A stretch of DNA of 24,973 nucleotides from a virus (lineage: Duplodnaviria; Heunggongvirae; Uroviricota; Caudoviricetes): IMG/VR virus record IMGVR_UViG_2724679239_000007, positions 1 through 24,973 of that record; one strand, 5' to 3'. Below the pieces are notes generated by a model that saw only the letters and a list, made by a program, of their open reading frames with translations, did not search any database and was not told where the DNA came from. Shown here one piece after another: positions 9,100-9,785 of the stretch (positions are counted from its first letter, which is position 1; every line of letters starts with the position of its first letter). The position numbers and the translations under genes were made by a program.

Positions 9100-9131
9100 G
9101 GATTTGAAAAGAAAAGCCCGCAAAAGCGGGC
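9100..9131 (-). terminator. Terminator-like hairpin between the tRNA pair and the holin gene
   Basis: GCCCGC-TTTT-GCGGGC hairpin followed on the minus strand by TTTTCTTTTC. Confidence 0.3.
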
Positions 9132-9337
9132 GAAACGGTATCTACAGTAAGGAAAGCACTCTATCCAACAAACCACCCACAGTTAATCGGAATAAAAGCA
9201 GAGTGCTTATGAATGATCGCCTGCCCGAAGATTGGTATTTCTGCACAGCAATTTTGCAAAAAAGACGCTCATTCATAACCCAAACGTCTTTCAGTCACTC
9301 CGGGCTTTCCCATCATCGCAGACTGAAAGACTCTAAC

Positions 9338-9412
9338 TGGAGCGGGCAGCGGGAATCGAACCCGCATCATCAGCTTGGAAGGCTGAGGTAATAGCCATTA
9401 TACGATGCCCGC
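9338..9412 (-). tRNA. tRNA-Gly (anticodon UCC)
   Basis: Reverse complement reads GCGGGCATCGTATAATGGCTATTACCTCAGCCTTCCAAGCTGATGATGCGGGTTCGATTCCCGCTGCCCGCTCCA: cloverleaf, TTCGATT T-loop, CCA end, anticodon loop CTTCCAA. Confidence 0.85.
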
Positions 9413-9415
9413 ATA

Positions 9416-9491
9416 TGGTGCCGACTACCGGAATCGAACTGGTGACCTACTGATTACAAGTCAGTTGCTCTACCTACTGAGCTAAGTCGGC
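9416..9491 (-). tRNA. tRNA-Thr (anticodon UGU)
   Basis: Reverse complement reads GCCGACTTAGCTCAGTAGGTAGAGCAACTGACTTGTAATCAGTAGGTCACCAGTTCGATTCCGGTAGTCGGCACCA: anticodon loop CTTGTAA; 3 bp spacer to tRNA-Gly. Confidence 0.85.
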
Positions 9492-9675
9492 GCTGGTTCC
9501 TCGGGTGTGAATGAGATGCCCGGATACATAATTTACCCTTCCCTCGGAACCGCAGAGATAATACAAATAAATAACCAGAATTCAATATTTGCTTATTCGT
9601 CTGTCGAAAAAGTCAGCAGACTGAAAGACCGGTATTCACAACCACCAGCGCGTTTAACGTCCGGTGCTGTTTTTC

Positions 9676-9706
9676 GGACATAAAAAACCCGCTTAGTGGC
9701 GGGCTG
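9676..9706 (-). terminator. tR'-like rho-independent terminator downstream of the late promoter
   Basis: On the minus strand GCCCGC-CACTAA-GCGGGT followed by TTTTTTATG; sits about 50-100 nt downstream of the predicted pR'. Confidence 0.45.
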
Positions 9707-9744
9707 TAAAAATTCTTCTAACGTCAGACATAAAACGCCCATCG

Positions 9745-9785
9745 TTAGGGCAAACTTACCACAGATTCCGGAAAAATCAACCTTG
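9745..9785 (-). promoter_or_regulatory. pR'-like late promoter immediately downstream of Q
   Basis: On the minus strand TTGATT - 16 nt - TAAGTT directly after the Q stop codon; lambda-like placement. Prediction by eye. Confidence 0.35.

Follow-up and report, generated by a model that had tools for sequence, protein, structure and literature searches.

A tRNA-Thr/tRNA-Gly cassette with a candidate promoter, a terminator and a structured trailer in the late leader of a defective Qin-like prophage

The 24,973-nt stretch of DNA analyzed here (IMG/VR record IMGVR_UViG_2724679239_000007, positions 1 to 24,973; hereafter the window) is a Qin/Rac-like lambdoid prophage in which two tRNA genes, tRNA-Thr(UGU) and tRNA-Gly(UCC), lie between the gene of the late antiterminator Q and a holin gene. 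Taken as a whole, the region is probably best explained as an autonomous tRNA operon that is nested in a Q-controlled late leader and aids codon supply. The Thr-Gly arrangement itself is already known: the Prokaryotic Genome Annotation Pipeline (PGAP) annotates it across hundreds of genomes, and it has been reported in phage phi467. Directly downstream of the tRNAs is a predicted three-hairpin trailer that seems to be undescribed, judged against Rfam, genome annotations and the small RNAs (sRNAs) PasA and PasD2. An earlier note on this DNA had recognized the tRNA pair and its lambda-like setting, and had suggested either capture and rearrangement of host tRNA genes by the phage or a distinct phage tRNA cassette. 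Its observations hold and its capture reading is not supported; it had missed the strand, the candidate tRNA promoter and the downstream structured RNA.

Results

The late leader and its tRNA genes

The late operon is on the minus strand, and all of the elements that the earlier note had listed are present within 9100-9785. The order is a lambda-family Q, a pR'-like promoter, an intrinsic terminator, tRNA-Thr, tRNA-Gly, a second terminator and an S21-type holin. The features of the region, in the direction of transcription, are:

9786..10607, minus strand: late antiterminator Q, 273 aa (Pfam Antiterm PF03589, E=1.8e-51; phrog_127)
9738..9780, minus strand: pR'-like late promoter (comparison with lambda pR' and conservation)
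9681..9706, minus strand: tR'-like intrinsic terminator (terminator scan, minimum free energy (MFE) fold and relatives)
9558..9585, minus strand: candidate sigma-70 promoter of the tRNA cassette (scan, 9/12 matches; conserved hexamers)
9496..9551, minus strand: putative leader hairpin (MFE fold and arm conservation)
9416..9491, minus strand: tRNA-Thr(UGU), CCA encoded (ARAGORN; Rfam RF00005, 73.8 bits)
9338..9412, minus strand: tRNA-Gly(UCC), CCA encoded (ARAGORN; Rfam RF00005, 64.9 bits)
9156..9331, minus strand: predicted three-hairpin RNA trailer (RNAalifold and covariation controls)
9331-9286, minus strand: trailer hairpin H1 (RNAalifold)
9278-9207, minus strand: trailer hairpin H2 (RNAalifold)
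9206-9156, minus strand: trailer hairpin H3 (RNAalifold)
9106..9131, minus strand: second intrinsic terminator (scan and fold)
8831..9046, minus strand: S21-type (class II) holin, first lysis gene (Pfam PF04971, P21 holin S, E=1.4e-35)

Exactly two tRNA genes are called by ARAGORN in the whole window, and both score far above the RF00005 gathering score of 29 in Infernal. They are separated by 3 nt, TAT (9415-9413), the spacing that had been read from the sequence before. The resemblance to host genes that the earlier note had suggested proves to be exact: tRNA-Thr equals Escherichia coli K-12 thrU (isoacceptor Thr4) at 76/76 positions including CCA, and is clearly not thrT, and tRNA-Gly equals K-12 glyT (isoacceptor Gly2) at 75/75 positions including CCA. 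As had also been stated, the tyrU gene that separates them in the host is missing, and the window holds only these Thr and Gly tRNAs.

The Q protein matches phrog_127 ('anti-termination protein Q-like', E=2e-110) and the structures of lambda Q in the PDB (7UBM, E=2e-40; 4MO1, E=1.3e-27). The alignment to lambda Q spans residues 1-113 and 183-273, with a Cys-rich insert of ~70 aa between them, and the architecture is that of the Qin/QuuQ type. The insert contains CxxCxGxG motifs, and a match to the DnaJ zinc finger remains below threshold (30.3 bits against a cutoff of 32.7).

Directly after the Q stop codon, the pR' candidate consists of TTGATT (9780-9775), a 16-nt spacer, TAAGTT (9758-9753), TGCCCT and AACGATGGG (9746-9738). 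From the -10 region to GGG, 19/23 positions are identical to lambda pR', with the same spacing. In lambda, AACGAT is a -10-like element at +1 to +6 that holds sigma-70 and pauses the polymerase, upon which Q loads; the corresponding pause-type element, AACGAT followed by GGG, occupies 9746-9738 in the window and is also kept in JP538 and WS3294A. By analogy, transcription from pR' would start at A9746. The tR'-like hairpin (9705-9686) has a GC-rich stem of 7 bp and a 6-nt loop and is followed by U6, and a pR' transcript ending at 9705-9681 would measure ~64 nt. Relatives with other Q alleles (JP538, EPSSH018, WS3294A and PhiR47_1) keep this hairpin in altered sequence, and HK639 has an annotated terminator at the equivalent position.

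Another hairpin, at 9752-9736, was considered as the first terminator and is probably not one: it is weaker, it shares positions with the pause element, other pairing is preferred in the MFE fold and no U-tract adjoins the stem. A match to the Trp_leader model (25 bits against 41) is below threshold and reflects merely two consecutive hairpins.

Because pR' matches that of lambda and a lambda-family Q adjoins it, a lambda-type Q/pR'/tR' module in the window is well supported by the sequence, as the earlier note had supposed. The likeness to the lambda late region covers the homologous Q, the stretch from the -10 through the AACGATGGG pause element and the intrinsic terminator that comes next. 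In contrast to lambda, the leader RNA would have ~64 rather than 194 nt, Q carries the Cys-rich insertion, the spacer between -35 and -10 is unlike that of lambda, a tRNA operon and a second terminator stand between tR' and S, and the holin is of the S21 type and not lambda S.

A candidate transcription unit for the tRNAs

The candidate promoter of the tRNA cassette is composed of TTGAAT, 16 nt and TATTAT and lies ~66 nt upstream of tRNA-Thr. Across 15 distinct aligned leaders, the -35 always begins with TTG, the -10 keeps TATnAT without change or almost so (n standing for the T just before the final AT), and the spacing is fixed. Several leaders keep the hexamers yet have flanks that diverged almost completely (Citrobacter L007, L054, L072, L089 and L121).

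Between this promoter and the tRNAs, GGUUCCGAGGG pairs with CCCGAGGAACC to form a predicted leader hairpin with a variable loop of ~35 nt, which ends 4 nt before tRNA-Thr. Its arms are conserved and its loop diverges. L054 and L089 have a compensatory change from C-G to U-A, and L007 has disruptive changes. Together these patterns weakly suggest that the hairpin is a real structure.

The second terminator is formed by GCCCGC-UUUU-GCGGGC (hairpin 9131-9116) followed by UUUUCUUUU, ~60 nt upstream of the holin start codon, and probably ends the tRNA transcription unit. The two terminator-like hairpins that had been said to flank the tRNAs are thus both recovered, with U6 behind the first and UUUUCUUUU behind the second. 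The same hairpin and U-tract follow the cassette throughout the E. coli-type clade. The diverged clade and HK639 have a different GC-rich hairpin at the same position, which is annotated as a terminator in HK639.

An autonomous unit with its own promoter and terminator that is inserted between two phage genes is known as a moron. Judged from its sequence, the cassette would fit the description of a tRNA moron, with a sigma-70-like promoter candidate and its own terminator, located between tR' and the holin gene. Presence and absence at the same site are found among relatives, and the terminator is recognizable. The Qin and DLP12 prophages of K-12 have homologous Q, holin and lysozyme modules, and the cassette is absent between quuQ and essQ (Qin) and between quuD and essD (DLP12).

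A predicted structured RNA trailer

The trailer is ~190 nt long, lies directly 3' of tRNA-Gly and is closed by the terminator at 9131-9106. The interval of 291 nt from tRNA-Gly to the holin is unusually conserved, at 96-98% identity in loci with differing upstream parts, and the apical sequences of the three hairpins, UCUGCGAUGAUGGG, UUGCAAAAUUGCUGU and GGGUGGUUUGUUGG, are invariant. A covariation test was possible because a diverged clade exists (~75-80% identity, including HK639). Based on 18 diverse loci, RNAalifold predicts 57 pairs, of which 9 have double compensatory changes. Of the cells at these pairs, 98.2% are paired, compared with 39-49% once a shift of 1-3 columns is applied to the 3' partners. 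The number of double-change cells is 54, compared with 19.9+/-4.7 in shuffles (0/500 reach the observed value), although most of the double changes separate the two clades and each pair represents about one event. The covariation score is 0.229, compared with 0.157 in shuffles (0/500). Nine independently compensated pairs with almost none broken are far above what divergence alone would give. The predicted structure is specific to the late strand because it contains many G.U pairs. The fold of the single sequence has a z-score of -3.25.

Among 5426 E. coli genomes, 526 carry the trailer, always without annotation, and its distance from the last tRNA is constant in ~110/127 loci. In HK639 it is likewise unannotated and is kept behind a tRNA-Asn and the 3' half of a tRNA-Gly.

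Searches of the trailer against Rfam 15 gave no match even at E<=5, which led us to reject decayed tRNAs and a known Rfam family as explanations. Nothing at the trailer reaches an Rfam gathering score; the hits below threshold are tRNA-mimic models on the tRNA genes and terminator-type leader models. No similarity was found between the trailer and the K-12 prophages DLP12 and Qin. BLAST found no similarity to PasA, PasD2 (enteropathogenic E. coli (EPEC); coordinates from Table S6 of the original paper) or the Q-to-holin interval of E2348/69, with PasB, PasC and the EcOnc RNAs of enterohemorrhagic E. coli (EHEC) not being part of the comparison. An identity with a Pas sRNA is accordingly rejected for PasA and PasD2, which the trailer does not resemble. 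IpeX was rejected as well, as nmpC is on the opposite strand in K-12 and DLP12 and Qin lack similarity. As to protein-coding potential, a 44-aa open reading frame (ORF) at 9276..9142 on the minus strand is broken by stops and frameshifts in close relatives, and a 95-aa ORF on the plus strand runs antisense through tRNA-Gly; neither was retained as coding.

The 14-nt sequence GCAGACTGAAAGAC (plus strand) occurs as an exact direct repeat at 9318-9331 and 9616-9629. The latter copy lies upstream of the tRNA promoter candidate and is conserved only in the closest relatives. We rejected the repeat as an insertion scar or target-site duplication because the upstream copy is not conserved in relatives such as JP538, EPSSH018 and phi467 and the downstream copy is the 5' arm of H1. 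In transcripts initiated at pR', the upstream copy could pair with the 3' arm of H1.

Distribution and related arrays

A 251-nt query comprising the pair and its immediate flanks (>=80% covered) was found in 523 of 5426 complete E. coli genomes (~10%), and PGAP annotates both tRNAs in those genomes. Using an exact pattern for the junction of the Thr 3' end and the Gly 5' end, we also found the pair in the species-representative genomes of Citrobacter braakii and Enterobacter hormaechei, in genomes of Shigella flexneri and E. coli, which have three copies apiece, and in at least 119 viral contigs of IMG/VR. Named phages that carry it are phi467, vB_EcoS-689R5, vB_EcoM-606R7, PhiR47_1 and JLK-2012. 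A survey of Shiga toxin (Stx) phages noted 'tRNA threonine and glycine' genes beside S in the Stx2f phage phi467 (PMC7366253).

The spacer is TAT in 118/130 loci, and the sequences are identical to the host genes in 85/131 cases for tRNA-Thr and 113/131 for tRNA-Gly (window included), counts to be read with the caveat that the search pattern itself required conservation at the junction. The two-tRNA form of the window is a minority (18/130 loci). Most loci have a four-tRNA array, in which a CAU-tRNA (Ile2 according to PGAP) and a further tRNA, here called X, precede Thr and Gly, so that the pair is the 3' half of the array.

In the IMG/VR loci with four-tRNA arrays, tRNA X is essentially one scaffold with differing anticodons: UCU (Arg) in 37 loci, UUU (Lys) in >50 loci, UAA (Leu), AAA/GAA (Phe), UUA (read as a stop, of ochre-suppressor type) and loops that ARAGORN could not assign. 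Loci with a variant X include L016, L039, L068, L081, L082, L096, L098 and L099. The variation could be anticodon switching or decay.

In annotated examples the order is constant, with Q, tR', the tRNA or tRNAs and then the holin; in phi467 it is stxAB, the tRNAs and S. The longer order of Q, tR', tRNA(s), trailer, terminator and holin is common to JP538, WS3294A, PhiR47_1, EPSSH018 and HK639. The cassette is thus present behind several Q types and behind stx2f. The closest matches to the 739-nt leader of the window are the IMG/VR locus L084 (96.6%) and E. coli JP538 (95.7%).

Two loci have altered tRNAs. In E. coli EPSSH018 (2703-2778), a single chimeric tRNA joins a 5' part of tRNA-Thr to a 3' part of tRNA-Gly, where PGAP annotates no tRNA. 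It evidently arose by recombination between the shared T-arm sequences GTTCGATTCC, with a deletion of 78 nt. In HK639 (1337-1710), a tRNA-Asn(GUU) follows tR', and next to it is a sequence whose 3' half is identical to tRNA-Gly(UCC) and whose 5' half is unrelated. ARAGORN makes no call for this Gly-like sequence, and the trailer and the annotated terminator come next.

Among named phages, phi467 (LN997803) is close to the window, with identical tRNAs, the TAT spacer, a homologous leader including the promoter hexamers, a trailer that is ~94% identical and the same holin, but it has the stx2f genes upstream where the window has Q. In PhiR47_1, the pair is instead the 3' half of an Ile2-Lys-Thr-Gly array behind a different leader. 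Phages vB_EcoS-689R5, vB_EcoM-606R7 and JLK-2012 share the tRNA-Thr/tRNA-Gly cassette of the window. Unlike the copies of the phi467/PhiR47_1 group, that of the window sits in a defective Qin-like prophage.

In phage 933W, tRNA genes situated between Q and the late genes were reportedly described by Plunkett and colleagues in 1999. The ileZ-argN-argO cluster of such Stx phages resembles the cassette in lying on the late strand after Q, pR' and tR' and before the late genes, in decoding codons that are rare in the host and in an array composition that varies among phages. It differs in being Ile-Arg-Arg, compared with Thr(UGU) and Gly(UCC) in the window. No Ile(CAU)-Arg-Arg series occurs in the window; in the related arrays, the first tRNA has a CAU anticodon and the second is Arg(UCU) or Lys(UUU). 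In Stx phages the tRNAs differ from the host genes, whereas the window copies are host-identical, and the window cassette adds the three-hairpin trailer and its own terminator directly before an S21-type holin.

Codon usage

tRNA-Thr(UGU) reads ACA and ACG, and tRNA-Gly(UCC) reads GGA and GGG. We compared the annotated genes of the complete phage PhiR47_1, a carrier of the cassette, with 48 annotated K-12 genes (codons per thousand):

ACA: PhiR47_1 12.8, K-12 sample 4.9
ACG: PhiR47_1 17.7, K-12 sample 13.8
GGA: PhiR47_1 12.8, K-12 sample 6.7
GGG: PhiR47_1 17.6, K-12 sample 11.7
AUA: PhiR47_1 7.6, K-12 sample 2.7
AGA: PhiR47_1 5.8, K-12 sample 1.2

The four codons read by the pair are enriched 1.3-2.6x relative to the host gene sample. 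AUA and AGA, which are the codons of other tRNAs in the larger arrays, are enriched too. The seven window genes around the cassette have 13.4 ACA and 12.5 GGA per thousand. For GGA, glyT is supplied on 'rare-codon' helper plasmids. The codon pattern is consistent with the usual explanation for phage tRNAs, namely that they would provide isoacceptors for codons that the phage uses more than its host.

Prophage context

The other features of the window that bear on the state of the prophage are:

23843-24973: integrase, right end of the window
20398-20449, plus strand: DicF sRNA (76.7 bits)
14114-14261, minus strand: sok antitoxin RNA with hok locus (117 bits)
13082-14278, plus strand: rve-family transposase ORF of insertion sequence (IS) type, 398 aa, ending on top of the sok region
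8826-8482, minus strand: YdfR/DUF1327 protein (Pfam PF07041)
8138-7605, minus strand: lysozyme (Pfam PF00959)
5996-7269: IS2, between the lysozyme gene (8138..7605) and an Rz-like spanin gene (6021..5509)
3324..2086, minus strand: second integrase (tyrosine type), directly following the truncated terminase
1811..1230, minus strand: anti-repressor-like gene, following the integrase at 3324..2086

The gene content includes a DicA-like repressor, a DnaC-like loader, DUF968/YdfU, RusA, Q and the right-end integrase, and DicF and hok/sok are typical of Qin-like prophages. IS2 splits the lysis cassette; the opening residues of its ORF A product are identical to those of InsC. The large terminase is truncated to 331 aa and matches only positions 332-644 of a 1330-position profile (region 2086-4481). 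The prophage is cut off at this point, probably by another element. With IS2, the truncated terminase, the second integrase and the second IS, the prophage is defective. The lytic role of the cassette is thereby probably moot in this copy, and expression of the intact tRNAs from the candidate promoter of the cassette may still occur.

Between ydfR and the lysozyme gene, on the opposite strand, there is a 90-aa ORF (8244-8516, plus strand) that matches phrog_2411 (E=1e-57), whose PHROG function is unknown. It is a small inserted gene, because relatives such as JP538 have only 64 nt there.

Discussion

We propose that the cassette is a unit made up of a sigma-70-type promoter, a leader hairpin, tRNA-Thr(UGU), tRNA-Gly(UCC), a three-hairpin trailer and an intrinsic terminator. 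During lysogeny, transcription of the unit would start at its own promoter and stop at its own terminator, which would keep the lysis genes silent. Upon induction, Q would load onto RNA polymerase during its pause on the AACGAT element at pR', and the modified polymerase would pass tR', transcribe the cassette and continue beyond the second terminator into the genes for lysis and morphogenesis. Host tRNA-processing enzymes would cut the tRNAs from the transcript, and the extra copies would make two minor isoacceptors more abundant. What we infer in this scheme is promoter activity, read-through that depends on Q, tRNA processing and a benefit to translation.

Several points weigh against this proposal. 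Expression of every part of the unit is predicted from sequence. The promoter scan by itself is at chance, with 2 sites found versus 1.6 expected, and for this reason it is the likeness to lambda and the conservation among loci that carry the promoter calls. Codon enrichment is moderate (~2-fold) and was measured with a reference of only 48 host genes. As the tRNAs are identical to the host copies, the gain would be in dosage only. There is no current selection for a lytic-phase function in the window, because the prophage is crippled by IS2, the truncated terminase and the second IS. Finally, the tRNA-moron model leaves the role of the trailer RNA unexplained.

As to the origin of the pair, the exact identity to thrU and glyT could mean that the host thrU-tyrU-glyT-thrT operon was captured by this prophage, or by a recent ancestor of it, with tyrU being lost afterwards. 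The spacer agrees with such a history: TAT is 1 nt after thrU plus 2 nt before glyT in K-12, the exact remainder of a clean deletion of tyrU with its spacers, and the pair has the same order as in the host operon. However, such a spacer match has a probability of 1 in 64 by chance, and in a BLAST comparison of the 739-nt leader with the thrU-tyrU-glyT-thrT-tufB region of K-12 there are two matches only, each of 77 nt, which consist of thrU with 1 nt after it and of glyT with 2 nt before it. No promoter, leader, tyrU, spacer, thrT or tufB is shared in this comparison. The window has an unrelated promoter, leader and trailer and a holin gene downstream, in the context of a prophage late operon, and the identical pair and spacer recur across hundreds of prophages, several genera and different Q genes and leaders. 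We regard a local capture, the reading to which the earlier note had leaned, as very unlikely. Since the pair is already so widespread, any capture would be old and not specific to this prophage, and no donor can be named because both tRNA sequences are identical in Salmonella as well. An old derivation from an operon of the thrU-tyrU-glyT type is possible on the basis of the sequence. The spread of the pair over genomes, genera and phages, together with the lack of homology to the host flanks, supports the note's alternative of a distinct phage tRNA cassette, and suggests that the pair is an old mobile cassette. It could also be asked whether the tRNAs are remnants of an att integration site or of the host operon and not functional phage genes, as phage integration often targets tRNA genes and a survey read tRNA matches near prophage sRNAs in this manner (bioRxiv 10.64898/2026.05.13.724894). 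Here the two tRNAs are full length and lie in mid-prophage between Q and the holin on the late strand, the free phages phi467, PhiR47_1 and vB_EcoS-689R5 have them at the same place in their genomes, the integrases are 6 kb (2086-3324) and >14 kb (23843-24973) away, and no host genes flank the pair. The full-length tRNAs, the mid-prophage site and the lack of host flanks refute the remnant reading, to which we attach next to no credence; the region is prophage DNA and not the host tRNA operon, with Q and the holin on either side of the pair and no tyrU, thrT or tufB.

As to function, the cassette might instead be an anti-defence device, in which spare copies replace host tRNAs that anticodon nucleases or tRNA-targeting toxins cleave or inactivate during infection. 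There are documented cases of phage tRNAs that offset tRNA-depleting defences, such as the T5 tRNAs against PARIS and retron systems, and the tRNA X beside the pair varies in its anticodon (Lys, Arg, Leu, Phe, stop) on one scaffold, as an arms race might give. But the Thr and Gly copies are host-identical in most loci, would be cut alike and could help through dosage only, which makes this role less attractive. In addition, no defence or counter-defence gene adjoins the cassette, and to our knowledge no nuclease targets tRNA-Thr(UGU) or tRNA-Gly(UCC) in E. coli. We consider an anti-defence role improbable. Slightly more credible, and still unlikely, is that the trailer RNA is the key product, whether it acts as an sRNA regulator, in processing or stability, or as a put-like cis element of the late transcript, and that the tRNAs serve mainly as processing punctuation. 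The strong covariation and invariant loops, the fixed distance behind the last tRNA in most loci and an end in a terminator hairpin with a U-tract, as in Hfq-dependent sRNAs, speak for this, as do the retention of the trailer in HK639, where only the 3' half of tRNA-Gly is left, and the precedent of 3'ETS-leuZ, an sRNA sponge cut from a tRNA precursor. On the other side, most copies keep both tRNAs intact and identical to those of the host, a sign of selection for their function as tRNAs.

The trailer may represent an undescribed phage RNA family that accompanies prophage tRNA arrays in ~10% of E. coli genomes and in HK639, acting either as an sRNA or sponge released from the precursor or in cis on the processing, stability or termination of the late transcript; we put this forward tentatively, at a little less than even chances. 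It would share with 3'ETS-leuZ and the prophage sRNAs StxS and PasA/C/D an origin from a tRNA trailer or from the lambdoid Q-to-holin interval and an end at an intrinsic terminator. In contrast to them it is longer (~190 nt plus the terminator). A put-like antiterminator is unlikely, because the tRNA promoter would then drive the lysis genes.

The presence of tRNA genes in a lambdoid Q-to-lysis leader matters little as such, having been known since 933W. What the present analysis adds is that the pair looks like an autonomous transcription unit nested in the Q-controlled operon. The structured trailer RNA, with its support from covariation, is the only item that is possibly new, and the anticodon changes on a constant scaffold in the larger arrays may merit a separate study. 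If the proposed unit is real, the tRNAs would be expressed in the lysogen without lysis, and a prophage could thereby shift how its host decodes ACA, ACG, GGA and GGG.

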